The notes: a model not told the origin generated them from the sequence alone. Positions 3,026-61,196 are shown, numbered from the stretch's first letter. The stretch: DNA of 64,000 bases from an uncultured Candidatus Saccharibacteria bacterium (GCA_964385825.1 CAYLPX010000003.1:37559-101558), one strand, 5' to 3'. Numbers and translations are program-made.

Positions 3026-4339
3026 CTATCTTCCCTCCAAAATATCAATCTGCTTTTGGAACTTATCAGCCAAATCAAGCACTTCATTACCATAGAATGC
3101 GTAGGCTGGCTTTGTCGCATTTTTCCACCCCGCCAGGTATCGCAAAGCAGCTAAACGCTCTGTTGAGCGGACTCCATTTTTAGCGCCATTATCTGTTAGA
3201 AGGAGCGCTGAGGCATAAAACGCATCACGAGGATCCCATGGATTCGGTGGTTTATTGCCGGTAATAGCTGTAATGCGATCTTTGTAGAGTACCCAAGTAG
3301 AAGGGATAAACTGCGCGGGCCCCATGGCTCCCCCATACCCGTACCAAGCTTTTTTAGACACGGGCATTTGATCAGGATCAAGCCCTAACTCCTTACAAAT
3401 CTGCTCGAAGATCGGCTTATCTCGAGTCGGATGCATATCTATATTCCAATTCCCTGTTCCCACGTTCTGTCCAAGATTTGATTCTTCAGCAATAATACCG
3501 AGAAGGAAGGCGGGGCGAATACCTAGCTTTCCCCCAACCTCTTTGGCGTAAGTATAAGCAACCTCAAATGAAATAGCTGCTGATCCTTGAAGTTGGAACA
3601 GTTCCTTTTTTATCTGTGCAGCGGTTAGTTTTTGTTGTGCTAGCACTAACTGGTACTGCTTCTCAAGACCCTTTGAAATTTTCAGAATATTATTCTTTTC
3701 CTTTTCTTGCTGTTCAATCTTTGTTTTCTCAAGCTGTTGAAGATGAAGTAGCTCTGTTTGCTCAGCCCTCTTATCCTCTAGAGTCTGTTTCTCTTCTTCA
3801 GTTTGACTCTTAGTATCACTAACCACACCAACTGAAGTTTGCAGGGAATCCTTGATAGCAACATACGAGTTGGCATCAGAGAAAAAGTTTGCCAAACTTT
3901 TCTTATTTACCAACATTAATTCAACTAAGGAGTAGTCATCGAGCTCCTGTGATTTGCGTAAAATTTGACCTAATGACTCCTTTTCCTTATCGAGCTTATC
4001 AGATAGTACACCGATAGTTTGTTGTTTGGCCCCAATATCATCAGAGAGCTGTTCTATTGTGAGACTGCGAGCTTTTATAGAAAGCTTCGCTTGGCTGATT
4101 TTGGCATCTAAAATAGCAATATCACCAGCCAGGGATTCAGATTCTTTTTGGCGATCCTCTAGAATTTTTTGTTGCTGGGCTATTTGGCTTTCAACATCTG
4201 CTAGCTGTTTTGTTAATTCTGCCCTCCGATCAGCAGAGAGTGATCCTGTGGGAGCGCTCTGCGCCAAAAGATTAAGTGGGGACAAGAGAAAAATACCCAA
4301 AAACCCGAAAATGAAAAAATAAGTATTTTTCATGAACAA
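3026..4339 (-). CDS. Secreted coiled-coil protein with C-terminal lytic murein transglycosylase (MltB/SLT_2-like) domain
   Basis: Signal peptide, then about 230 aa of Q/K/E/L-rich coiled coil. C-terminal domain carries the catalytic ES (IIAEESNLGQ) and the family-3 LT motif GGAMGPAQFIPSTW. Confidence 0.6.
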   Translation of the reverse strand: MFMKNTYFFIFGFLGIFLLSPLNLLAQSAPTGSLSADRRAELTKQLADVESQIAQQQKILEDRQKESESLAGDIAILDAKISQAKLSIKARSLTIEQLSDDIGAKQQTIGVLSDKLDKEKESLGQILRKSQELDDYSLVELMLVNKKSLANFFSDANSYVAIKDSLQTSVGVVSDTKSQTEEEKQTLEDKRAEQTELLHLQQLEKTKIEQQEKEKNNILKISKGLEKQYQLVLAQQKLTAAQIKKELFQLQGSAAISFEVAYTYAKEVGGKLGIRPAFLLGIIAEESNLGQNVGTGNWNIDMHPTRDKPIFEQICKELGLDPDQMPVSKKAWYGYGGAMGPAQFIPSTWVLYKDRITAITGNKPPNPWDPRDAFYASALLLTDNGAKNGVRSTERLAALRYLAGWKNATKPAYAFYGNEVLDLADKFQKQIDILEGR

Positions 4340-4382
4340 AAGTAAAAAGTTAAGAGATGCCCAGAGTTAGGAAACGTTGAGG

Positions 4383-4410
4383 TAAAAACAAAATACGGCA
4401 TCTCTGCCGT
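4383..4410 (-). terminator. Rho-independent terminator of rplY
   Basis: Plus strand acggcatctctgccgt (6-bp stem) preceded by taaaaacaaaat. On the minus strand this is hairpin + ATTTTGTTTTTA, about 40 nt after the rplY stop. Confidence 0.45.
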
Positions 4411-4448
4411 ATATTGTAGCATTTTTCAATTTTAACTTTTCCCCGTCT

Positions 4449-5111
4449 TTAGGCTTCCTCACCCTCAGCCGTTGCTGCTTCCTCCTTCTTACCCTTCTTT
4501 TCTACCTCAATAGCTGAAAGATCAACAGGGGCTGCTTCAACTTCCTCCTTAGCAACAGTAACTGAAGCCACAACTTCATCAGCCCCTTCTATAGCCACAA
4601 CTCCTGCTCCTAGTTTCAAATCCTTAACTGCAATGTGACTCTCAAGTGTAGTAAGTGAAGAAATATCAACCTCAATTACATGAGGAAGATTCTTTGGATC
4701 AGCCTCAACCTTCATTTCATGAAGCACCTTAACAACGATTCCCCCGAGCTTTACACAAGGAGCCTCTCCTACGAATTCAAGTGGTATATCGATCTGTACT
4801 TTCTTACCTTTTTCTAGAATATAAAAATCAGCATGACGAAGTTCGCCCTTAACAGGGTCGGTATCTACCTCACGGATAAGTGCCTCAAGCTTCTTACCAT
4901 CATGAGTAAGGGTTACAACACTAGACTCACCTGCCTTCTTGAAAACCTTTTTGAACTCAGCCTTAGAAACTGTAATAGGTGTAGACTTTTCCTTGTGGCC
5001 ATAGTAAACAGCCGCCATGGTTTCTCCCGGAAGGCGCTTACTAGTTTTGCCGAGCACCTCGCGAGGAGTGAAGGCTAATGAAAATTCGCTTTCTGACATA
5101 ATAGGGCGCAT
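4449..5111 (-). CDS. rplY: 50S ribosomal protein L25 / general stress protein Ctc
   Basis: L25/Ctc-like sequence (VYYGHKEK...GELRHADFY...) with acidic C-terminal tail. The start may be the Met 4 codons downstream (5099). Confidence 0.8.
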   Translation of the reverse strand: MRPIMSESEFSLAFTPREVLGKTSKRLPGETMAAVYYGHKEKSTPITVSKAEFKKVFKKAGESSVVTLTHDGKKLEALIREVDTDPVKGELRHADFYILEKGKKVQIDIPLEFVGEAPCVKLGGIVVKVLHEMKVEADPKNLPHVIEVDISSLTTLESHIAVKDLKLGAGVVAIEGADEVVASVTVAKEEVEAAPVDLSAIEVEKKGKKEEAATAEGEEA

Positions 5112-5167
5112 TATACTCTAAAATACAGAGTTAGCAACCACCCTAGGTAGAAAAGCGAGGGTTAGCC

Positions 5168-5464
5168 TTAAACAGTCACATCTATCGTTTTAGTAATCAA
5201 AAAAGCCTTATTTTTAGGGTTTTTTTCGTCCTCAATGAGCCCAACCTTAAACCCGATCTCAGAAGCCATGTTCAAAAGTCCTTTTTCAAGGGATGCTTGG
5301 AGAGTTAGCAACTTATCCCTTGTAAGAAAATCCTCCGGTACCAAGATTTCAAGCGATCCTGTCTTATCCAAATGTTCTTTATTGCGCGAAACATAAAGGA
5401 CCATGGCCTCTGCCCAAACCCCCTCTTCAGTTTTCTCTCCTTCGTGTAGGCGCACTCCTTCCAT
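5168..5464 (-). CDS. Hypothetical protein (98 aa)
   Basis: Complete ORF tightly packed between fba and rplY (3-nt spacing to fba). No recognisable motif. Confidence 0.4.
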   Translation of the reverse strand: MEGVRLHEGEKTEEGVWAEAMVLYVSRNKEHLDKTGSLEILVPEDFLTRDKLLTLQASLEKGLLNMASEIGFKVGLIEDEKNPKNKAFLITKTIDVTV

Positions 5465-5466
5465 GA

Positions 5467-6330
5467 CTACATTCCATTAAACAACTTAAGTCGTGCGGTA
5501 ACCGTTTCCTGCATAGCTTCAAGTGCCGGTTTCATAATCTTGTACGGTGCTACTTCATCCGGGTTTTCTGCCAAAAACTTTTTCACTGCATCACGATATG
5601 CCACACGAATCTCGGTATTAATATGAACTATGGCAACTCCACTTTTGATAACTCCCGTAAAATCTTCATCCACTGTTCCCGATCCTCCATGAAGTACAAG
5701 GGGAACTCCTGTTGAAAGTGCGATTTCCCGAGTACGTTCAATATTAAGCCGCGGATCTTTCACATTGCGAAGCATGCCATGAATGTTGCCAACAGATGGA
5801 GCAAAAAAGTCTATACCTGTTTCTTCTACAAAGCGCTTGGCCTCCTCAGGGGTAGTAAGATTCTCAAGTGACACCCCTTCTGGTATTTCATCCAGCACCT
5901 TAGAGGAAGTTCCAATATACCCGAGCTCTGCTTCAACCATAATTTCTCTGCCCGAGGCACGCGCATACTCCACACACTGCTTGGCAATTTTTGCATTTTC
6001 TTCAAAAGGAAGTTTAGCCCCATCAAAAATAACTGAATCAAAACCAGCATCTATTACTTCCTTCACTCGCGGAAATGAGTAGGTATGATCAGCGTTGAGA
6101 TAAATAGGATAATTAAATTCCTTTTGAATACTTCGCACCAACGCCACCACCTGTGGAATACCGATAAAATCTCTCTCTCCCTCTGATACCCCGATAATAA
6201 CTGGAACATTCAAACTTTGGCCCGCCCTAAAAATGGCCCACAACCCTTCTAAGTTACTAATATTAAAGTGCCCAACCGCTACTCCACGCGCTTTTGCGTC
6301 AAAGACTGTTTCCTTAAGTGATTTTTGCAT
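5467..6330 (-). CDS. fba: Class II fructose-bisphosphate aldolase
   Basis: GVAVGHFN near the N-terminus, LHGGSG motif, 287 aa: class II FBA/tagatose-bisphosphate aldolase family. Confidence 0.85.
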   Translation of the reverse strand: MQKSLKETVFDAKARGVAVGHFNISNLEGLWAIFRAGQSLNVPVIIGVSEGERDFIGIPQVVALVRSIQKEFNYPIYLNADHTYSFPRVKEVIDAGFDSVIFDGAKLPFEENAKIAKQCVEYARASGREIMVEAELGYIGTSSKVLDEIPEGVSLENLTTPEEAKRFVEETGIDFFAPSVGNIHGMLRNVKDPRLNIERTREIALSTGVPLVLHGGSGTVDEDFTGVIKSGVAIVHINTEIRVAYRDAVKKFLAENPDEVAPYKIMKPALEAMQETVTARLKLFNGM

Positions 6331-6383
6331 ACGTAATATTTTATCACATAAAAAAACCGAATACCTATGATAAAATTAAAACC

Positions 6384-28029: not shown

Positions 28030-30216
28030 CTAAAGCTTCCCCCCAGCTCTAAGCGTATCTGCTGCTTTTTGATACTGAGCAGAAGTTGCAGGGTTAGTCT
28101 CAATTTTAGCCGCCGCCACGAACTCAACTATAGCCTGTACTGTATTTCCTGTTTGGTAATACGCAGAAGCTAAGCCTGCACGTGTACGCGCATCAGTTGG
28201 ATTCTGCTTAACCTTTTCCTGCCAAATATCAACCACCTCACTGAAATGCTTTGTTTGGAAATACGCCTGTGTAAGACGGTCGTCCACCGGTGTTGCTCCA
28301 TTTAGTCCACCTTTAAGTACACTCTTAGCCTGATCAACATCCCCTGCATAGATAAAGCCAATAGCATAAAGGGTTCTTGCTTCATCGTTTTCTGGTGCCA
28401 AATCAAGTGCTTGTTTTAGGTAGGTAAGCGCTTCATTAAACTTACCAGCATTTTCGTATGTTGAGGCGAGCTCATAGAGAATCATTTGTTTTTGCGGAGA
28501 AAGTTCAAGAGCCTTAGTTAATTGTGTAATAGCATTATTAGTGTCGCCATAAGAAGCAAGCATTGCCCCATAAAACAGACGGTGACGAGCGTCATTCGGT
28601 GCTTCTGTAACCATAATGTCATATTCTCGCTTAGCCAAATCAAAGTAAGCTTGCTTCTCTTTAATATCTACCGACGTTTGATACCGAAGGTTGTACACTG
28701 TCTGCATCAACTGTTCACGGATTTCTTGGTCGCCAAAACTATGATGCGCTAAAGCACTTTCAAAATACCCCTTGGCTTCAACTGGATTCTTTACATTACT
28801 TAATGCAGAAATGAGTTCAGTATTTGCTGCATAAGCCTTGCCATTAACTGCATAAATTGTAATCAATGCTAAAACTACAATGAGTGGGGCTATAACTCCA
28901 TTCACTCTACTTTCACTCGCTGTTAAGAATGAAGACATACTGCGAATCTTGGTACTAAATGGGCGCGCCACATCAAAGTGTAGATACGCGAGGAACAACG
29001 TAAAGAATAGATAACTTACTAAGTTATCAAACACGAAGATATTATGGAATAAGTACGCCAAGAAAAGCCCGGTAATTAGAGAACGCTCAACAAAGGTAAG
29101 GTCTCCATGCTTCCAGATTGCATATAGTCCAAGACCAAAAAGAGAAAGATACGAGAGGAGGCCGAAAATACCGCCAGCAATCAACCAATCTAGAAATACA
29201 TCATGAGTGCGGTCAAACCATGGCTCCTTGTTATACATTTCTGGAGCGTAATATTTATTGAAGACATAGTTAAAATTCTCCTGCCCCCATCCAAATAGTG
29301 GCTTTTCCTTAAATCCCTTAAGCGCCATAGGCCACACATACCCGCGAGACTGCGTTTGACTCTCACTCCAAGAAATAGTAGCGAAACGCTGCAGTACAGG
29401 ACTCTTTTGCACAAATGAAGAATCTTTAATAACAATAAACCCACCGATCAAGAGAAGTATTCCTGCTACCAGTCCGATTGAGAGTTTACGTAACCCTTTT
29501 GTTTCTTTACCAAAAAGCGCAATGAGGAGCGCAGTTGCTAGTAATCCTCCCAATAAACCGAGGATGGCTCCACGAGTTGCTGTGTGGTACAGAACAATTA
29601 ACTGCCCAACTACTAACAAGCCATATGTCCATTTCAGGATAAGATCAGTCTCACGACGAGCAATGAAAATGAGGGCAATGAAAATATGAAATACGAGGTA
29701 AATAGCTAAATAGGTTGCGTTTCCAAGGGTTCCATCAACACGTACTCCTCCTTGGTTAATAGTTAGTTTGCCAGCTAACTGCAAGAAACTATAAAAAACC
29801 ATTATAAAGCTTACAAACAATGAGGTTTGAAATAGTGCATTCCAAAGTTTGCGTGTCTGAAGCACACTCCCAAGAACTATAAAGTAAGCGAACAGGTGGA
29901 GCATGGTTATATATCCCTCCATGCGTTCAAAGTTACTCCAAAAACTCTTGTAGGGATTTTCAGCAAAAATAGTTGCGACCCCCATAACCACAAGGAAACC
30001 AAAGAAGGCACCAAAAATACTTGAGTACTTTGGCCGATAGTCACTATCTCGAAGTGCAAGTATTGCCCAGAGAGCAAAAATAATCTCAACCAGTACACGG
30101 AATGCAAAATTCTTTCCAGTAATGAACGGAAAGAACATATTACTGGCTACATAAAGCGGAATAAACGGGATGATAAAGACACCAGTTAATATAAGGGATC
30201 GCAGTGTGCTGTTCAT
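28030..30216 (-). CDS. O-antigen ligase/polymerase-like (Wzy_C) polytopic membrane protein fused to C-terminal TPR repeats
   Basis: About 12 TM helices with the Wzy_C-like segment (LYHTATRGAILGLLGGLL). About 300-aa C-terminal periplasmic TPR array (multiple A..Y..G/ L..A...P repeats). Confidence 0.6.
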   Translation of the reverse strand: MNSTLRSLILTGVFIIPFIPLYVASNMFFPFITGKNFAFRVLVEIIFALWAILALRDSDYRPKYSSIFGAFFGFLVVMGVATIFAENPYKSFWSNFERMEGYITMLHLFAYFIVLGSVLQTRKLWNALFQTSLFVSFIMVFYSFLQLAGKLTINQGGVRVDGTLGNATYLAIYLVFHIFIALIFIARRETDLILKWTYGLLVVGQLIVLYHTATRGAILGLLGGLLATALLIALFGKETKGLRKLSIGLVAGILLLIGGFIVIKDSSFVQKSPVLQRFATISWSESQTQSRGYVWPMALKGFKEKPLFGWGQENFNYVFNKYYAPEMYNKEPWFDRTHDVFLDWLIAGGIFGLLSYLSLFGLGLYAIWKHGDLTFVERSLITGLFLAYLFHNIFVFDNLVSYLFFTLFLAYLHFDVARPFSTKIRSMSSFLTASESRVNGVIAPLIVVLALITIYAVNGKAYAANTELISALSNVKNPVEAKGYFESALAHHSFGDQEIREQLMQTVYNLRYQTSVDIKEKQAYFDLAKREYDIMVTEAPNDARHRLFYGAMLASYGDTNNAITQLTKALELSPQKQMILYELASTYENAGKFNEALTYLKQALDLAPENDEARTLYAIGFIYAGDVDQAKSVLKGGLNGATPVDDRLTQAYFQTKHFSEVVDIWQEKVKQNPTDARTRAGLASAYYQTGNTVQAIVEFVAAAKIETNPATSAQYQKAADTLRAGGKL

Positions 30217-53950: not shown

Positions 53951-53997
53951 GCAGAATACTGTAACAAAATTAAGGTGGTTATGCTATGTAAACCCAT

Positions 53998-54025
53998 GAA
54001 AAAGGCCGGATGTCACCGTCCGGCC
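53998..54025 (-). terminator. Rho-independent terminator of the island-1 ORF
   Basis: ggccggatgtcaccgtccggcc (7-bp perfect GC stem) preceded on the plus strand by gaaaaa (a T-run on the minus strand), 18 nt after the ORF stop. Confidence 0.5.
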
Positions 54026-54042
54026 GACCAGCCCCACAACGT

Positions 54043-54264
54043 TCATCCCAGGGCTGCTGCTGTGGCATCCTCGCGGAGACCATGTTGCCTGCCGTATTCC
54101 TCATGCTGGAGGCTACGGTCTTTCCGCGCCTCCCTGAGCGCCAAGAGGAACGCCGTCCTATCTGCAAGGGTCCCGAACTTCAGGGTAATCCTGAGACCGG
54201 TTTCCTCCACAAAGTCGACATCCGGCGGCAAGTTAATCACCGCGGGGCCAGTTTCTTGGTTCAT
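54043..54264 (-). CDS. Small GC-rich ORF P1 (73 aa, unknown function) with strong SD
   Basis: MNQETGPAVINLPPDVDFVEETGLRITLKFGTLADRTAFLLALREARKD... Upstream is CCTAGAGGAGAGTGTCATG (GGAGA, 6 nt, ATG). Codon usage (CTC, CGG, GCG, CCG) is unlike neighbouring genes. Confidence 0.4.
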   Translation of the reverse strand: MNQETGPAVINLPPDVDFVEETGLRITLKFGTLADRTAFLLALREARKDRSLQHEEYGRQHGLREDATAAALG

Positions 54265-54299
54265 GACACTCTCCTCTAGGGTGGGTTCTGATCAATACA

Positions 54300-55151
54300 C
54301 TACAATAAAAGTTCGCTTTTGACTATAGAGACTAATTTTTCTGCCGCTTCCATGTCATTCGCTTGTGGGGATACCTCTGCTATATTATTTTTTACAAAAT
54401 ATTCACCCGATACCCCACTAGCCTTAGGACTACTAGCCAGATACACACTAGTTTCTGCCCCCGCTTTTGGAGAAATAGTAGTAAGAGAAAACAAACCCCT
54501 CACTACTATGTTTGAATTTCTCATTCCCTCTTTTAAAAGATTAGTACGGACTACTCCAGGGTGGAGTGCATTAACTGTCACACCACTTTCCTTTAACTCT
54601 TTAGCAAAGATTTTTGTCCAAAGAATGAGTGCGAGTTTTGAATTACTATAAGCCCTGTAGTGATCAAAATGTTTCCTACTTTCTAAATCACCGAGATTAA
54701 TTTCGCCCTGTGCATGCATAGTAGAAGAAACATTAATAATACGTGCTGGTGCCCCCGCTCTTAAAAGAGGTAGCAGAAGGTTTGTTAGCAGGAATGGGGA
54801 AAGAAAGTTGACCTGCCAGTTAAGTTCATGTTTGTCTCCGGTTTCAATACGCTCTTGCGGCATAACTCCCGCATTGTTAATAAGAACATTGAGTTGTGTA
54901 TATTTTTCTTTAAACTCCTCAACAAATTTCCTTATTGAAGCAAATGAGGCAAGATCTACTAAATAGTATGCTACGTTTGCATTCGGCATTTCTCGCTTCA
55001 TTTCTGTTAGTACACTCTCACCGTCCTCAACGTTGCGCGCAGTAAAAACAACCTGGGCTCCGAGTGTAGCAAGCCCCCGTACCGTTTCTTTACCGATGCC
55101 ACTTGTTCCACCTGTAACAAGGCATACCTTCCCTTCCATACTGTTATTCAT
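54300..55151 (-). CDS. Short-chain dehydrogenase/reductase (SDR) family oxidoreductase
   Basis: TGGTSGIG cofactor motif, NNAG, and YxxxK (YSNSK). Confidence 0.8.
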   Translation of the reverse strand: MNNSMEGKVCLVTGGTSGIGKETVRGLATLGAQVVFTARNVEDGESVLTEMKREMPNANVAYYLVDLASFASIRKFVEEFKEKYTQLNVLINNAGVMPQERIETGDKHELNWQVNFLSPFLLTNLLLPLLRAGAPARIINVSSTMHAQGEINLGDLESRKHFDHYRAYSNSKLALILWTKIFAKELKESGVTVNALHPGVVRTNLLKEGMRNSNIVVRGLFSLTTISPKAGAETSVYLASSPKASGVSGEYFVKNNIAEVSPQANDMEAAEKLVSIVKSELLL

Positions 55152-55183
55152 ATATAGATACTACTATACTTAAAGGTCTATAG

Positions 55184-56605
55184 TCACTCTTCATCTTCCA
55201 AAATAGTATATTGATCTACCTCCTCACGAGTACGTCTCACGTACACCACAGCCCCTGAAACCACTCCACAAAAAGCCAATACTCCCATGAGCCAAACCCA
55301 TGTTTTAGACTGATCTTTTTTGGTCTCTTTATCTTTGGGCACTACCTCTTGTGACTCCAGTGCATTTACTACAGTTGCTACATTACTTGAAGAAATAGTT
55401 TTACTTTTAGCTTGTATTTTTGCTAAAGCATTAGAAGTATTCGCTACGGATGCTTGTATTCCTATAGTTCTACTCGGCACAGGAAGGCCACTCGCATAAA
55501 AAAGAGTAGGTGTCATGTTTCCTAAAAACTGACTAACACTGTTGGCAATTTTTATAGTCTTATTTGCCCCAATGAGCGTTCCACTCGGGACTAAGAACTT
55601 TGTATCGCCCGCTTCTAATTGGAAGCGTGAAATATCAAGTTCATTTGTTCCATTATTTTTTATCTCAGTATACCCCTCTTTCCCAGGTATAAACTGTGAA
55701 ATGCTAAGTGTAGGATCTACTACTTTTATGAGTACCCTATCCCCCTGCGAATATTCGCCCGATGTCACGTCAAGGGTAACAATATACTCTCCCAGAAAAT
55801 GATACGTGTGAGCTACCTGCCTTCCCTCCCTAACTTCCCCATCACCAAAATTCCAAACAAAATGGGCATTTGGCAACGGTTCTTTATTAACCCCAAGTGC
55901 GCTGCCCACAAAAACAGTCTCGCTCCCTAAAAGAGTGGACCTATCCTTGCCTGCATCAGGAAAAATTTGTTGTTCGGTTTTATAGTGGCTAGCAACAACT
56001 TCACCACTTCCCCCGCCTAAAGAAGTTGAGTTATTGCTTGAGGTACTGGTAGTATCAGTAGAAGTTGTAGTAGTACTCGCAGGCGGAGTTATACCGGGAC
56101 CTGAAGTATTCATGGCTCCAGGAGTTGGGTTCCCACTTTTAAAACCGCCCCCATTTCTATTCAAACTCATACCATCCCCCGCGCCACCCGTATCACTACT
56201 ATATGAAACTGTATCCATATCAGCATCTCCACTACGAAGTACCAATGTCTCGCCAGTATTTGAAAGCGAAAAAGAACTATCAAAAATAGTTCCGCTAAAC
56301 CCAGGATTATCTGCTAGAAACTTAGACGGGGTATCGGCTACCACCGCATAACTATTCGCAGGGACTACCGCAGAACCCTGGCTTACTTCGAGCTTATGAT
56401 TAGTTTCTGCCTCACGCAGTGTCCACTTAGACATATCTACCGCCTCTCCTCCATCATTGTAAAGCTCTATCCACTCTCTGCCGGTGTCAGTCCCCGGAAG
56501 ATCGTACATGATTTCATTAATCAAAACACTCGCTCCGGCAAACTTGAAAAACAAAAAATAACAAAGAAAAATAGAGAATACGCGTATACCCTTAATTAGT
56601 TTCAT
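55184..56605 (-). CDS. Surface protein with lamin-tail domain (LTD) and PKD domain, N-terminal signal peptide and C-terminal TM anchor
   Basis: LTD signature VLINEIMYDLPGTDTGREWIELYN. PKD-like FVWNFGDGEVREGRQVAHTYHFLGEYIVTLDVTSG. Ser/Thr-rich linker. C-terminal TM WVWLMGVLAFCGVVSGAVVYV. Start set at Met 56605, which gives a canonical signal peptide; the ORF-track start is 56653. Confidence 0.6.
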   Translation of the reverse strand: MKLIKGIRVFSIFLCYFLFFKFAGASVLINEIMYDLPGTDTGREWIELYNDGGEAVDMSKWTLREAETNHKLEVSQGSAVVPANSYAVVADTPSKFLADNPGFSGTIFDSSFSLSNTGETLVLRSGDADMDTVSYSSDTGGAGDGMSLNRNGGGFKSGNPTPGAMNTSGPGITPPASTTTTSTDTTSTSSNNSTSLGGGSGEVVASHYKTEQQIFPDAGKDRSTLLGSETVFVGSALGVNKEPLPNAHFVWNFGDGEVREGRQVAHTYHFLGEYIVTLDVTSGEYSQGDRVLIKVVDPTLSISQFIPGKEGYTEIKNNGTNELDISRFQLEAGDTKFLVPSGTLIGANKTIKIANSVSQFLGNMTPTLFYASGLPVPSRTIGIQASVANTSNALAKIQAKSKTISSSNVATVVNALESQEVVPKDKETKKDQSKTWVWLMGVLAFCGVVSGAVVYVRRTREEVDQYTILEDEE

Positions 56606-58487
56606 CATGCTCAACATGAAGCATAGCGCGAAGTTTATCTTCAGGAATTTCATTCACCACTCTTCCTACTTCTTCTTTAGAAGTAGTTAAGTTTTCCCTA
56701 ACTGGTTCTTTAGTTTCTTCTCCACTCTCCCCATCATCCATAACTATTTCTTCCTTTTTCTTAAGTGACGCCAGAACTGCAGCGAGAGCTTGCTTATTAG
56801 CGGTATTAGTATTCTGTCGGCGAGAACCTTCTTCCCTCCGCCCTTCCACAGGGGGCCGATCTCTTTTCACCTCTTCTTTTTTTTCTGCCCTGGGTACTGA
56901 TACTTGAGGCACAGCTTCCGGCGCCTTATGCGTCTGTGTTTCTTTAACCACAGGCTTCTCCTCTTGGTGTTCTTCGGGAATAGTGGCCCCTACAACACTT
57001 GCCAACGTTTGACGAAGCCCTTCAAGATGAAGATGTGAGCCAACTTCCTTTATTTTTTCCTCAACCACATGACTTAAGGTTTCGTGGTTTTCCTTTTTTG
57101 GTCCTGCTTTTCTATCCTCTCTTCGTGGATGCTCGCGCCCCTCCTGTTGTCGCTCCTCAAATTTATTCTCCTTCTTCTCTCCCTTTGGCGGTACGCTTGT
57201 ACTTAATGTCTGCTTTACAATATCCTCCTCCACGACGCTACGCTTTTCACCAAACTGCTCTTGTGAAGTGCGAATTACTTCTTCTTTATATGAAATAACT
57301 GGCTTTGCAACTGGGGGCATAGTAACAGCAGAAAAAGGTTGCGAGCCCACTCCATCAATCATGAGCTTGAGGTATATTTGCGCGAATCCAAGATTCACAA
57401 AGTCTTCTGCGATAAATGTGGGCATGAATTCTTTCTCGAAAATCTCTGCATCGAATGGTCCCACCCGAAATACAATCATGGTCCCCACGTTACCAAAAAT
57501 AGCTGCTCGTACCTCCTCTGACATTTGTTCAATGTATTGATGCGCCACTGTGAGGTTTAATTTGTACTTACGAGCTTCTGAAAGAATGTCAGCAAAACTC
57601 TCATTAGCAAAAGACTGGAACTCATCTACATAGAGATAAAAATTAGGAAGTCGTGCCATCCGTGATTCTGGTACATCAGCGCGACTCATAGCTGCTAGAT
57701 AAATCTTAGTAATGAGCATGCTTCCCAAAAGGTTGGCATTGCTCTCTCCTACACGACCTTTAGAAAGATTGATGATCAGAATTTTTTTCTCGTCCATCAT
57801 CCTTCGAAGATCAAAAGAAGATTGTGGCTGGCCAATAATATTACGAATGAGAGGATTACTGGTGAACTGCCCCACCTTGTTTTGAATAGCCGGTGTCGCT
57901 TCTGCGGCAAATCGATCGGTGTACTTTGCAAACTCATCTACCCAAAAAGACTTCACTGTCGGATCAGTTATATTATCCACCACTTTTTTACGGAAATCCT
58001 TGTCAGAGAGCATCTTGTTAATAGCAAGAAATGTAGCTCCTGGATACTCAAGTAGAGCAAGGAGTGTATTGGAGAGAATGTACTCCATACGAGCACTCCA
58101 AGCATCCACCCAGATTTTCTTAAAGGCGCTCATAAGCCCCGATACCACTAAATGTCGCTTATCTATACCAACATCTTCCATCACATTGAAAGCAATCGGG
58201 TACTCCATATCAAAAGGAGCAAAGTAGAGTACGTCCTTGATGCGGTGCTCTGGTACGTAATCAAGTAGGAGTTCTGCTGTCTTGCCGTGTGGATCTATAA
58301 AAGCCAGCCCCTCACCATTCTGAATATCTTGAATGGCCATGTTTTCAAGAAGTGTAGACTTCCCCATCCCCGTCTTACCAATAACATACGTATGACGAGT
58401 TCTGTCTTTCGCTTTAATACCAAAAGGTACTCGACGATTGCGAGCGTCTGTAGTTGCAAAATAGGTTATGCGATTTTCATCAGGCAT
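56592..58487 (-). CDS. TraG/TraD/VirD4-family (type IV secretion coupling-protein-like) soluble P-loop ATPase with long charged C-terminal tail
   Basis: Walker A GKTGMGKST and IDPHGK (cf. TrwB/TraD ..DPKG..). Walker B YLYVDEFQ. About 250-aa E/K/R-rich low-complexity C-terminus. Start set at ATG 58487 (MPDENRITYF...); the longer ORF-track extension runs into GC island 2. Confidence 0.5.
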   Translation of the reverse strand: MPDENRITYFATTDARNRRVPFGIKAKDRTRHTYVIGKTGMGKSTLLENMAIQDIQNGEGLAFIDPHGKTAELLLDYVPEHRIKDVLYFAPFDMEYPIAFNVMEDVGIDKRHLVVSGLMSAFKKIWVDAWSARMEYILSNTLLALLEYPGATFLAINKMLSDKDFRKKVVDNITDPTVKSFWVDEFAKYTDRFAAEATPAIQNKVGQFTSNPLIRNIIGQPQSSFDLRRMMDEKKILIINLSKGRVGESNANLLGSMLITKIYLAAMSRADVPESRMARLPNFYLYVDEFQSFANESFADILSEARKYKLNLTVAHQYIEQMSEEVRAAIFGNVGTMIVFRVGPFDAEIFEKEFMPTFIAEDFVNLGFAQIYLKLMIDGVGSQPFSAVTMPPVAKPVISYKEEVIRTSQEQFGEKRSVVEEDIVKQTLSTSVPPKGEKKENKFEERQQEGREHPRREDRKAGPKKENHETLSHVVEEKIKEVGSHLHLEGLRQTLASVVGATIPEEHQEEKPVVKETQTHKAPEAVPQVSVPRAEKKEEVKRDRPPVEGRREEGSRRQNTNTANKQALAAVLASLKKKEEIVMDDGESGEETKEPVRENLTTSKEEVGRVVNEIPEDKLRAMLHVEHDETN

Positions 58488-58550
58488 GAAAAAAAGAAAT
58501 GAACGTAAGTACCTAAAGTATAGTCTAATTTGAAGTAGTTGTCTCCAAAT

Positions 58551-58576
58551 GAAAAGCCCGCAGCCGAAGCTGCGGG
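58551..58576 (-). terminator. Rho-independent terminator of the island-2 ORF
   Basis: cccgcagccgaagctgcggg (8-bp perfect stem, cgaa loop) preceded on the plus strand by gaaaag (T-run on the minus strand), 18 nt after the ORF stop. Confidence 0.55.
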
Positions 58577-58594
58577 TTCCGAAACACCAAGGCC

Positions 58595-58819
58595 CTACTG
58601 CGGCCGCATGGGAACGTACGCGCCGTTCCTGAAACACCCCTTCGTGAAATTCGTCACCGGCATTGCGCGGAGCTCCGCCTCGGCAATGCCAGCCGTCGTC
58701 GGATTACCGCTGAACCGCCGCCTTGCCCGGCGCAGCGCCACCTTCTTCTTGTGGAGCGTAGCGCCATTCACCGGCCGCCGGTTTTGCTTTCCGTCGTTTC
58801 CAGGTTGCTTCAAGGGCAT
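58595..58819 (-). CDS. Small GC-rich ORF P2 (74 aa, basic, unknown function) with strong SD
   Basis: MPLKQPGNDGKQNRRPVNGATLHKKKVALRRARRRFSGNPTTAGIAEAELRAMPV... Upstream is CCTCTAGGAGACTTACATG, the same GGAGA-N6-ATG geometry as P1. Confidence 0.4.
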   Translation of the reverse strand: MPLKQPGNDGKQNRRPVNGATLHKKKVALRRARRRFSGNPTTAGIAEAELRAMPVTNFTKGCFRNGAYVPMRPQ

Positions 58820-58901
58820 GTAAGTCTCCTAGAGGAACAATGCAAAACCCCCATGGTTTCGCATCGCGATATGGTAGCAGAAGACCTACACCTACACAAG
58901 T

Positions 58902-59171
58902 CTACAGCTCTTCTTTTTGGGTAACCAAAGGCTCTGTAACTCCTTCGCCTGGAGTCTCCACATGAGTTACTCCGCCAACTACCTTTTTCATTTTTTTACC
59001 ACCAACACTAGTTGTCTTCCTTTTTCCATGCCTTTCTCTGTAGCTAATGTACGCAATTATTACCCCAAAAATGATATAGAAAGGATTTTTCCAGGCATTA
59101 GGGATAGAAACAAAGGGGGTGGCTAACACCACAATACCTATGGCCAATATAAAAACGAGATTCTTGCTCAT
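58902..59171 (-). CDS. Small membrane protein (89 aa)
   Basis: Two TM helices, then a basic/Gly-rich tail. Confidence 0.4.
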   Translation of the reverse strand: MSKNLVFILAIGIVVLATPFVSIPNAWKNPFYIIFGVIIAYISYRERHGKRKTTSVGGKKMKKVVGGVTHVETPGEGVTEPLVTQKEEL

Positions 59172-59271
59172 AAACCTAGTATAAAATAATTAATCATTTT
59201 TTCCAATCTTACTATTACCCACCGTATAATTGTGTATTATTCAACCTGTACGATACAATTATTACATATAT

Positions 59272-59871
59272 ATGTTTCCTCTCTTTAGACCCTTTAGAAA
59301 AAAGACCTCAGAACGTGGCTTTACTTTAGTGGAACTCATGGTTGTAGTAATGATTGTAGCTATTATTGCAAAAATAGTACTTTCGTCAGTCAACCAAAGC
59401 CGAGCTATAACACGCGATAAAATAAGAAAAGATGCCTTAGTCCAACTTAAAATGGCACTAGAGGCTTACTTTGACGCTAATGGCTCATACCCAAGTACCG
59501 GTGATACCTATAATGCGAGCACCAATACATGGACACTTACGTGGTACACCTCAGAACCAGGATTCCCCAACCTTTCAAATGGCCCAGGTAATAATGGAAT
59601 TTGGATTCCCGGGTTAGCCCCTACGTATATATCTGCGCTCCCCCGTGACCCCGATAGTTCGAAAGTGGGACCAGGTGTTTGTACATCACTTACCAACCCA
59701 AAAGCTAGTTACCTGTACACTTCAGATGGACGTCATTACTCAGTTGGCTCAATCTGTTCTGGTGAAACTGGTTTTAGAATCACTGATCAATTCGCTATCG
59801 ATACGCCAACCATTCATCGCTGGCAATACATGTGGACCATCTGTAATGATCGAATTTCCTGCGCTTGGTAA
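59272..59871 (+). CDS. Type IV pilin / pseudopilin-like protein (prepilin N-terminal methylation motif)
   Basis: GFTLVELMVVVMIVAIIA: a class III signal peptide with Gly at -1, Phe at +1 and the conserved Glu at +5. Start set at ATG 59272. A TATAAT hexamer lies at 59225-59230. Confidence 0.65.
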   Translation: MFPLFRPFRKKTSERGFTLVELMVVVMIVAIIAKIVLSSVNQSRAITRDKIRKDALVQLKMALEAYFDANGSYPSTGDTYNASTNTWTLTWYTSEPGFPNLSNGPGNNGIWIPGLAPTYISALPRDPDSSKVGPGVCTSLTNPKASYLYTSDGRHYSVGSICSGETGFRITDQFAIDTPTIHRWQYMWTICNDRISCAW

Positions 59872-60595: not shown

Positions 60596-60859
60596 CTATG
60601 GAGTAGCATCGAGCTCCGCCCTCATTCCGGACGATAACCCCCCACTCCCACCGCCGTTCATGAGCCTCCCCCAATCCATAGCAAAACCATGAGCTACGAA
60701 CTTATTGCCATGTGTTTGATCAAAAAACTTTCGAACAACAGTGTAGAGGGGCGAAGAACAATCAAGAAGCGCGTAGCCAGACCCGCGTTCGTCATCGCAG
60801 ATCCGCACTAAGTTATAGGGAGACTCCGGTCCCCATGAGATTCCTGGAGCATTTTTCAT
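60596..60859 (-). CDS. Small GC-rich ORF P3a (87 aa, Gly-rich C-terminus, unknown function)
   Basis: MKNAPGISWGPESPYNLVRICDDERGSGYALLDCSS...GGGSGGLSSG. A G-rich SD-like stretch (AGGGGAACAGCATG) precedes the start. Confidence 0.35.
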   Translation of the reverse strand: MKNAPGISWGPESPYNLVRICDDERGSGYALLDCSSPLYTVVRKFFDQTHGNKFVAHGFAMDWGRLMNGGGSGGLSSGMRAELDATP

Positions 60860-60968
60860 TGCTGTTCCCCTGCAAAATTATCTTTTTAAAAATTAGCACA
60901 TGAAAACATAATTGACCACAAGAAGGAGTGCCCAGTATAGTATGAATCCAGTTCTTTTGGAGATTGCA

Positions 60969-61196
60969 ATGGAAGAATCCATCCTCGCCGACAGGGTAAC
61001 CCCCTTTCAGCGAAAAGTGGCAAACCTCGCCGAACTCACCGTGTTTTTTGGTGGAGCCAAGGTTTGGACAGCGTGGGAGCCAATCCTTGAGGGCCTTGCG
61101 CTTTCACATGGCGTCGATCAAGAAGAAGCCTCGGCCTGTTTCTTCCTAGCGGTCGCAAGCTTCAGCGAAAACGGCCTCCCCGACGAAGCCCTCTAG
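60969..61196 (+). CDS. Small GC-rich ORF P3b (75 aa from MEESIL..., unknown function)
   Basis: Start chosen at ATG 60969 because it is preceded by GGAGATTGCAATG, the same GGAGA-N5-ATG geometry as P1 and P2. The ORF-track start is 60912 and an alternative ATG lies at 60942. Confidence 0.35.
   Translation: MEESILADRVTPFQRKVANLAELTVFFGGAKVWTAWEPILEGLALSHGVDQEEASACFFLAVASFSENGLPDEAL

Follow-up and report, generated by a model that had tools for sequence, protein, structure and literature searches.

An anchor-less relative of type IV coupling proteins in the conserved chromosomal backbone of Paceibacteria

Introduction

Does an ATPase of the type IV coupling protein (T4CP) class that is encoded far from secretion genes belong to acquired DNA or to the inherited chromosome, and which role might it have there? 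The question is raised by a DNA stretch of 64,000 nt from an uncultured Candidatus Saccharibacteria bacterium (GCA_964385825.1, CAYLPX010000003.1:37559-101558), called the window below. Its block at 54300-59871 encodes such an ATPase, a surface protein with LTD and PKD domains and a type IV pilin. A sequence-only reading of this DNA had interpreted the three genes as a DNA-uptake or DNA-transfer module, located between GC-rich islands and itself a hotspot for, or a part of, acquired DNA. Much of bacterial diversity is made up of Patescibacteria, which live in dependence on hosts and whose conserved proteins mostly lack a known role. The gene in question is the following.

56592..58487, minus strand: T4CP-like (VirD4/TrwB-type) ATPase, 631 aa, with a core at residues 1-430 and a disordered charged tail at residues 431-631 (Pfam, NCBIfam, AlphaFold model, Foldseek)

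The ATPase is a vertically inherited chromosomal core gene of Paceibacteria (Parcubacteria). It is not acquired DNA, because its composition is native and its neighbourhood is conserved in 80 species. The best overall explanation, held with a little more belief than doubt, is an anchor-less T4CP paralogue that acts as a ring motor and is brought to the membrane in trans. The protein is among the most conserved of its neighbourhood, with a core identity of ~77% across Paceibacteria families and hundreds of species, yet it is of conjugation descent and encoded far from secretion genes.

Conservation and genomic context

The analysis covered the window, 10 kb beyond either end, and related loci from species-representative genomes. 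Eighty loci with ±8 kb around the ATPase were kept, chosen as best ATPase matches; some neighbour counts were taken among 77 of them and others among 80. More than 8000 homologues were scored, many of them ~80% identical to the core (residues 1-425). A relative is encoded in 535 of 599 candidate stretches from species-representative genomes. The informative titles of relatives all refer to Paceibacterota/Parcubacteria, namely Taylor-, Zambryski-, Yonath- and Nomurabacteria. The closest relative of the window (L001), L002, L004 and many other loci are titled 'uncultured Candidatus Saccharibacteria bacterium'. Their gene order and 60-80% ATPase identity match metagenome-assembled genomes of Paceibacteria, and the labels look unreliable.

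Across the 80 loci the recurrent gene order is MurD-MurC-RsmI-…-ATPase-…-glycosyltransferase-glycosyltransferase. Of the loci, 39 contain RsmI, 30 contain MurC and 46-49 the glycosyltransferases. Compared within the same pairs of genomes, the ATPase core is ~77% identical, RsmI 56%, and MurC and MurD ~50%, a comparison in which the ATPase is somewhat favoured by the selection of loci on ATPase similarity. The genes for the ATPase, the LTD protein, a short-chain dehydrogenase/reductase (SDR) and the pilin have a GC content of 0.41-0.45 and a GC content at third codon positions (GC3) of 0.32-0.39, as in SecA and MurC.

Acquisition of the block from elsewhere, as had been suggested, is contradicted by this native GC3 and by the synteny in 80 species. 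A search for repeats flanking the block returned chance-level short matches only, and no integrase, mobility gene or tRNA flanks it. The sequence-only reading had also proposed a search of the neighbouring regions for VirB4/VirB6-like and ComEC/PilB/PilC genes. None was found in the 64-kb window or within 10 kb past either end. A relaxase gene was likewise not found in the window or these flanks. The markers used detected no linkage to a type IV secretion system (T4SS) and no relaxase in ±8 kb of the 80 related loci.

Assignment of the ATPase

The protein starts with MPDENR, and its relatives begin at the same position. A longer open reading frame (ORF) with a GTG start at 58637 was considered and rejected; it would cross the upstream terminator and promoter. 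The motifs first noticed in the sequence are present: Walker A (GKTGMGKS) at residue 37, DPHGK, corresponding to the TrwB-like DPxGK motif, at residue 65, and Walker B (YLYVDE) at residue 284. No membrane helix was detected in the ATPase, the maximum hydropathy over 19 aa being 1.21. Only 36 residues precede Walker A, and the protein has no N-terminal transmembrane domain, unlike the usual two-helix T4CP.

Four Pfam families match above their cut-offs: TrwB_AAD_bind (8e-8; 32 bits against 20.5), DUF87, the HerA central domain (7e-7; 30 against 23.2), T4SS-DNA_transf (6e-6; 25.9 against 20.1) and TraG-D_C (3e-5). The best NCBIfam matches are TraD and VirD4-like, far under their thresholds (SXT_TraD 52 against 366 bits; CD1115 VirD4-like 38 against 250 bits). 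A search of PDB sequences, with the single sequence or a profile, yielded only a weak match to the P-loop of TrwB.

An AlphaFold (AF2) model was built on 30 homologues. It is confident in the core, with a pLDDT of ~90 over residues 50-300, and disordered in the tail. Between Walker A and Walker B the model shows an inserted helical domain (residues 108-232), which corresponds to the all-alpha domain of T4CPs. This domain is not known as a feature of HerA or FtsK. Foldseek against the PDB ranked Cagβ (6e-8), DotL and TrwB (down to 1e-4) first, followed by HerA (2e-5) and the C-domain of DndH. FtsK_SpoIIIE had no Pfam match to the protein, no FtsK chain was among the 50 Foldseek matches listed (weakest E = 1.1), and an FtsK gamma-like domain is absent. 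No NurA-like neighbour of the ATPase was found.

The predicted fold and the profile matches thus place the ATPase with the type IV coupling proteins, ahead of HerA. A grouping with the FtsK/HerA housekeeping families, combined with synteny and universality in relatives lacking the GC-rich islands, had been named beforehand as evidence against a transfer module. The block is indeed syntenic and near-universal in such relatives; the ATPase sits with the T4CPs rather than with FtsK or HerA.

Loss of a membrane module within the family

The ATPase family comprises 22,471 representative clusters in an exhaustive search. Long forms, 50-56% identical to the window ATPase, carry ~400 additional N-terminal residues consisting of a membrane hairpin and PF26449 (DUF8128). 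In split forms (L083, L086) DUF8128 has a gene of its own, 3 nt upstream of the ATPase gene, and the ATPases share 55-59% identity with that of the window. Their context is SecD-SecF-sigma-like gene-DUF8128-ATPase, for example in the complete Nomurabacteria genome CP060223.1. In L086 (16319-18567) ComEC is called in two parts (DUF4131+Competence and Lactamase_B) ~3.5 kb downstream of the DUF8128+ATPase pair; this was not seen in L083.

A B. subtilis plasmid of 63.6 kb encodes a fused form of 913 aa, followed immediately by a relaxase-like (replication-relaxation) gene and the transfer genes TcpD, TcpE and VirB4-like. This form ties the ATPase family to monoderm conjugation. Further relatives occur on plasmids of Streptomyces, haloarchaea and Sulfolobus and in large Bacillus phages, and the PHROG family phrog_5156 matches the ATPase at 1e-59.

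The window ATPase begins exactly at the domain junction of the fused forms (…FGIK..DR.RH). No DUF8128 gene was found in the window or in the related loci fetched. In a neighbour-joining tree without support values, the 78 syntenic ATPases fall within one 90-leaf clade, and all 40 fused and both split forms fall outside. Judged by sequence, the window-type clade is a distinct paralogue within the conjugative T4CP family and has lost the membrane module.

The C-terminal tail

The long, charged and disordered tail noticed earlier is present, with 41% K/R/E/D. It comprises ~200 aa (residues 431-631) rather than 250, is predicted to be disordered, and differs among relatives in both length and sequence. 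At its end stands a conserved amphipathic helix.

56613..56651, minus strand: candidate docking peptide, the conserved C-terminal helix of the ATPase tail, EIPEDKLRAMLHV (30-sequence alignment; translation checked)

The family motif is E-[IV]-P-E-[DE]-x-L-[KR]-x-x-L. In the 30-sequence alignment the columns E613, P615, L619 and L623 are conserved, and a helix is predicted at 616-622. The strict motif occurs in 59 of the 90 clade sequences and in 10 of the 116 others. A different ending, x-P-G-x-x-[VI]-x-[FL], is seen in more distant and in fused relatives.

A disordered tether with a subfamily-specific end peptide is what a docking device would be expected to show. TraD (with TraM) and DotL (with adaptors) dock through C-terminal tails. 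The disordered linker with a short conserved peptide, E-I-P-x-x-x-L-R, also loosely recalls the C-terminal peptide of FtsZ. No FtsZ or FtsA for comparison with the tail peptide was found in the fetched loci.

Neighbouring genes

The remaining features of the block and its borders are listed from high to low coordinates.

59272..59871, plus strand: type IV prepilin, 199 aa, divergently oriented (N_methyl motif)
59178-59206, minus strand: promoter-like site ahead of the small 2-TM gene (consensus scan)
58902..59171, minus strand: small protein with two transmembrane segments (2-TM), 89 aa, basic cytoplasmic tail, conserved upstream neighbour
58595..58819, minus strand: GC island 2, basic ORF of 74 aa with its own ribosome-binding site (GC 0.63, GC3 0.79)
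58557-58576, minus strand: strong terminator after the ORF of GC island 2 (terminator scan)
58517..58545, minus strand: promoter-like site GAGACA-17-TATACT directly upstream of the ATPase (consensus scan)
55184..56605, minus strand: LTD-PKD-LTD surface protein, 473 aa (Pfam; the gene call in L089 also has 473 aa)
55187..55216, minus strand: cytoplasmic C-terminal tail motif of the LTD protein, DQYTILEDEE (C-termini of LTD homologues; translation checked)
54300..55151, minus strand: short-chain dehydrogenase/reductase, third gene of the ATPase transcription unit (Pfam adh_short 2e-42)
54043..54264, minus strand: GC island 1, ORFan of 73 aa, last cistron before the terminator (GC 0.59, GC3 0.66)
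54004..54025, minus strand: strong intrinsic terminator closing the ATPase-LTD-SDR-ORFan unit (terminator scan; stem kept in L001)

The ATPase operon has overlapping genes, a single promoter-like site and a single strong terminator. The SDR gene and the small 2-TM gene also lie within the block and had gone unmentioned. The SDR is lineage-specific and follows the LTD gene only in L001 and L002.

A secreted LTD/PKD protein had been proposed directly downstream of the ATPase, and it is found there. The start of its gene overlaps the ATPase stop by 14 nt. Pfam identified LTD (1e-22, two stretches) and PKD_4 (5e-10). Hydrophobic segments at residues 18 and 451, in the numbering of the long ORF, mark a Sec-type signal peptide and a membrane anchor at the C-terminus of the protein. 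LTD homologues occur in 19 of 77 loci, always in position +1 on the same strand, often overlapping the ATPase gene and never elsewhere in ±8 kb. Their cytoplasmic tails share [DE]-[YF]-x-I-[IL]-E; seven of the 11 matches to the strict pattern among 1038 locus proteins are LTD homologues. Pfam detected no nuclease or DNA-binding domain in the LTD protein. Nothing was found in the literature on DUF8128, nor on patescibacterial LTD proteins.

In 58 of 80 loci a homologue of the small 2-TM gene precedes the ATPase gene on the same strand, and it is the immediate upstream neighbour where a DUF4015 gene is absent. In 55 of 80 relatives (e.g. L031:6747-7943) this glycosyl-hydrolase-like DUF4015 gene separates the two. 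It is missing in the window and in L001, where GC island 2 takes its place (between 58488 and 58901). The small 2-TM protein was considered as a membrane domain that had become detached from the ATPase. A 2-TM hairpin, a basic cytoplasmic tail and a position beside the ATPase wherever DUF4015 is absent make it an attractive candidate. It is disfavoured by the finding that, after separation, the gene stays with DUF4015 and not with the ATPase (L012, L048, L067, L069).

The type IV pilin reported 0.8 kb upstream of the ATPase was recovered, with 785 nt between the two starts and on the opposite strand. Its prepilin leader is …SERG|FTLVELMVV. It matches N_methyl (2e-7; 30.5 bits against 21.2) and TIGR02532 (28.1 against 16.3) and, weakly, GspG/ComG. 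Pilins of this class belong to the type IV pilus or type II secretion, another machine than the type IV secretion system. No pilus assembly or channel genes accompany the lone prepilin in the window or its flanks. A pilin homologue near the ATPase was found in one of 80 loci, and an ORF with a pilin motif up to four genes upstream in three of 77; at this slot L001 has none. This rarity and the lack of partner machinery nearby speak against the trio as a DNA-uptake or transfer module.

Beyond the pilin follow RsmI, two GC-rich ORFs (60596-60859 and 60942-61196), MurC, a NUDIX gene and MurD. The remaining window holds housekeeping genes (RF1, L31, SecA, GatB, Obg, MurB, transketolase, GAPDH) and a large glycosylation cluster. 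No tRNA, tmRNA or Rfam family was detected in the 64-kb window. At 28030-30216 lies the gene for a Wzy_C membrane protein (O-antigen-ligase-like, 728 aa) whose C-terminus carries TPR repeats. A Wzy_C/TPR-like protein stands directly downstream of the ATPase in several relatives (e.g. L015:9713-11671). Just past the right end of the window, as seen in L089, a 16S rRNA gene (4200-5692) and tRNA-Ile(GAT) (6290-6363) come after MurD and MurI, and then SecD and SecF. In other members of the Patescibacteria, SecDF precedes a sigma-like gene, DUF8128 and the paralogous ATPase.

GC-rich cassettes

GC-rich mini-islands had been reported on both sides of the block, and they are present at ~53975-54300 (62% GC) and ~58540-58850 (64.5%), compared with 41% in the window. 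Four small GC-rich ORFs of 73-87 aa (54043-54264, 58595-58819, 60596-60859 and 60942-61196) each have a ribosome-binding site and an intrinsic terminator. Their GC3 of 0.50-0.79 differs from 0.32-0.40 in the neighbours and ~0.35 in the genome. A search among 5.8 billion proteins returned only itself for the island 1 ORF; homologues of islands 2 and 3B were found only in L001, and none for island 3A. The island ORFs have no family match in Pfam, NCBIfam, PADLOC or PHROGs.

Comparison with L001 located the variation. Start codon regions, terminator stems and downstream promoters of the islands are conserved, and the bodies are strongly diverged. The slot of island 1 is held by a diverged GC-rich ORF; island 2 has kept its start (MPLKQPG) and terminator stem, with a diverged body. 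At the ATPase promoter the TTAGACTATACTTTA stretch is invariant between the window and L001, next to the diverged island body. Island 3A and the pilin occur in the window only and not in L001.

Two explanations for the islands were rejected. As structured RNAs they have no Rfam match (gathering threshold or E≤1) and no tRNA or tmRNA; the fold z-scores are -0.85 for island 2 and -3.0 for island 1, the latter mostly due to the terminator. They are treated as small ORFs. That island 2 might be what is left of the missing DUF4015 gene found no backing, as tblastn showed no similarity.

The slot upstream of the ATPase has a length of at least 200 nt in 41 of 68 loci. A GC-rich stretch occupies it in 22 of these 41, and the stretches are mutually non-homologous. 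Examples are L001, L004, L006, L009, L011, L041, L052, L059, L061, L063 and L079. Small GC-rich cassettes appear to be inserted here recurrently. The suggestion of a hotspot between the islands holds for this slot, which repeatedly takes GC-rich inserts, but not for the block itself, which is conserved backbone. The cassettes sit where transcription units end, in slots that vary while the backbone around them is conserved; it is they that vary and not the block. Neither the pilin nor the GC-rich ORFan cassettes belong functionally to the ATPase system.

Possible function and rival explanations

As an anchor-less T4CP paralogue, the ATPase would form a ring-shaped, presumably hexameric, ATP-driven motor on the inner side of the membrane that threads a polymer, either DNA or unfolded protein. 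Its recruitment would depend on protein contacts and not on membrane helices of its own. The main contact would be the ~200-aa disordered tail with its terminal EIPEDKLRAMLHV helix. The co-transcribed LTD-PKD protein may contribute in some lineages through its cytoplasmic motif DQYTILEDEE. The client considered most likely, tentatively and at clearly less than even probability, is the chromosomal T4SS of Patescibacteria, encoded elsewhere in the genome. It would be the most economical client because such clusters have no coupling protein of their own. The remaining, larger share of the probability falls to a T4SS-independent role in the envelope or in DNA handling.

Several points weigh against this explanation. 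The ATPase has no membrane anchor, so strong a sequence conservation is unusual for coupling proteins, and no T4SS gene lies in the window or the examined flanks. The bias of locus selection in the identity comparison and the tree without support values count here as well. A reading of the listed C-termini suggests that the tail helix is equally conserved with and without an LTD gene; the LTD protein can therefore not be the universal partner, and the partner must be something universal. VirB4 was reported from 2,417 Patescibacteria genomes (80%), T4CP homologues from 96% (Quiñonero-Coronel et al., 2025; PMC12102498). According to the same survey, the genome of L013 has two t4cp1 matches and no VirB4 call, and the t4cp homologue of S. 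epibionticum is non-essential while its T4SS is essential (PMC12102498). The essential T4SS cluster of S. epibionticum was described without a recognisable coupling protein (Wang et al., 2023).

The strongest rival, in itself unlikely, is a T4SS-independent housekeeping DNA pump. The ATPase would then be a soluble, SftA-like ring translocase at the division site or nucleoid, its tail peptide docking to a divisome protein. A conservation above that of MurC and MurD in the same genomes, the missing membrane anchor and the fixed position beside the cell-wall and division genes MurD, MurC and MurI and the 16S rRNA operon are consistent with such a pump; so is the loose likeness of linker and peptide to FtsZ. 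A second T4CP paralogue exists that could serve the T4SS, and T4CP homologues occur in more genomes than VirB4. However, the fold is nearer to coupling proteins than to HerA, FtsK is not among the matches, and the gamma-like domain is lacking. Patescibacteria genomes also carry t4cp2 (TcpA-profile) matches, for which an FtsK-like role is presumed, and adjacency to mur genes is weak evidence in very compact genomes. Quite unlikely, too, is a more far-reaching proposal, in which the ATPase, the small 2-TM protein and, in a quarter of the lineages, the LTD-PKD protein would constitute a previously unrecognised envelope-spanning apparatus of Paceibacteria. A T4CP-derived motor, tethered by the C-terminal helix of the ATPase and the [DE][YF]xI[IL]E tail of the LTD protein, would, without involving a classical T4SS, power the uptake or hand-over of macromolecules from the host, for instance DNA. 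If this were true, the extreme conservation of the motor would reflect an essential step of nutrient acquisition in the episymbiotic lifestyle. A motor for export or assembly of the surface glycoconjugates or surface proteins encoded around the ATPase is improbable. The conserved neighbours are all envelope genes: the small 2-TM gene (58/80), DUF4015 (55 ORFs among 80 loci), Wzy_C/TPR, the two glycosyltransferases (46-49/80) and LTD (19/77). Yet the small 2-TM gene, once separated, remains with DUF4015, the neighbourhood may reflect only the conservation of gene order in a streamlined genome, and no T4CP-, HerA- or FtsK-class ATPase is known to drive polysaccharide export.

The tempting interpretation as a mobile DNA-transfer island including the pilin had to be corrected. 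A module of ATPase, LTD protein and pilin for DNA uptake or transfer, in or as part of horizontally acquired DNA, is very improbable. It draws on the T4CP type of the ATPase, the LTD gene as +1 neighbour in a quarter of the loci, the flanking GC-rich ORFans with foreign-like GC3, and ComEC 3.5 kb from the DUF8128-linked paralogue in a single locus (L086). It is largely refuted by native composition and synteny in 80 species. The pilin is not conserved at the locus, Pfam recognises neither a nuclease nor a DNA-binding domain in the LTD protein, and mobility genes, tRNA and flanking repeats are missing, as are competence and pilus-assembly genes in the window and 10 kb beyond. Anti-phage defence by an ATPase like HerA, mad8 or DndH is scarcely credible. 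PADLOC matches to mad8 (3e-14) and HerA (1e-9), Foldseek matches to the DndH C-domain and HerA defence complexes, and the relatives in phages and plasmids would fit. Defence genes, however, are patchy and fast-evolving, whereas the ATPase is near-universal in its class and ~77% conserved; its context is housekeeping, and no gene for a partner nuclease, Sir2 or methylase is located nearby.

Comparison with known systems

The T4CPs (TrwB of R388, VirD4, TraD, Cagβ and DotL) share with the window ATPase the P-loop core of the FtsK/HerA superfamily and the all-alpha insert, and they are its best structural matches. IDPHGK of the ATPase aligns to VDPNGD of TrwB. In contrast to T4CPs, the ATPase has no N-terminal membrane domain and no linkage to virB4, relaxase or transfer genes. 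The identity to them is only 13-17%, and the window gene is chromosomal, near-universal in the class and unusually conserved.

The ring translocases HerA, FtsK and SftA belong to the same superfamily. DUF87 scores above its cut-off, and HerA is a weaker structural match. The ATPase differs in having neither an FtsK_SpoIIIE match in Pfam nor an FtsK structure among its matches, and in possessing the predicted all-alpha domain of T4CP type. SftA of Bacillus is a soluble, anchor-less relative of a membrane DNA pump.

The DUF8128-linked ATPases (PF26449 + PF10412) comprise fused forms, known from other Patescibacteria, the B. subtilis plasmid and phrog_5156, and split two-gene forms as in Nomurabacteria CP060223.1. 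They are 50-59% identical in the core, including the N-terminal hairpin FGIK…DR.RH and the helix pair past the ATPase domain. Unlike these, the window-type clade has no DUF8128 in cis or in the fetched neighbourhood. The context differs as well, with SecDF and a sigma-like gene in the former and MurC, RsmI and glycosyltransferases in the latter.

Orphan T4CP homologues of Patescibacteria represent the same phenomenon, being VirD4-type and almost never adjoining virB4. A survey identified 5,713 VirD4-type homologues in 2,918 of 3,035 genomes (96%), 148 of them near virB4, and suggested a possible exaptation (Quiñonero-Coronel et al., 2025; PMC12102498). Several T4CP matches per genome, far apart, are listed in its Table S3. 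The gene family has thus already been noted. A subfamily split, loss of the membrane module, a conserved neighbourhood, tail peptides and an LTD partner were not described in the survey and are new details. The loss of the module, the docking-type peptide of the tail and the co-transcription with LTD offer experimental handles on the role of the orphan T4CP homologues, the question raised in 2025.

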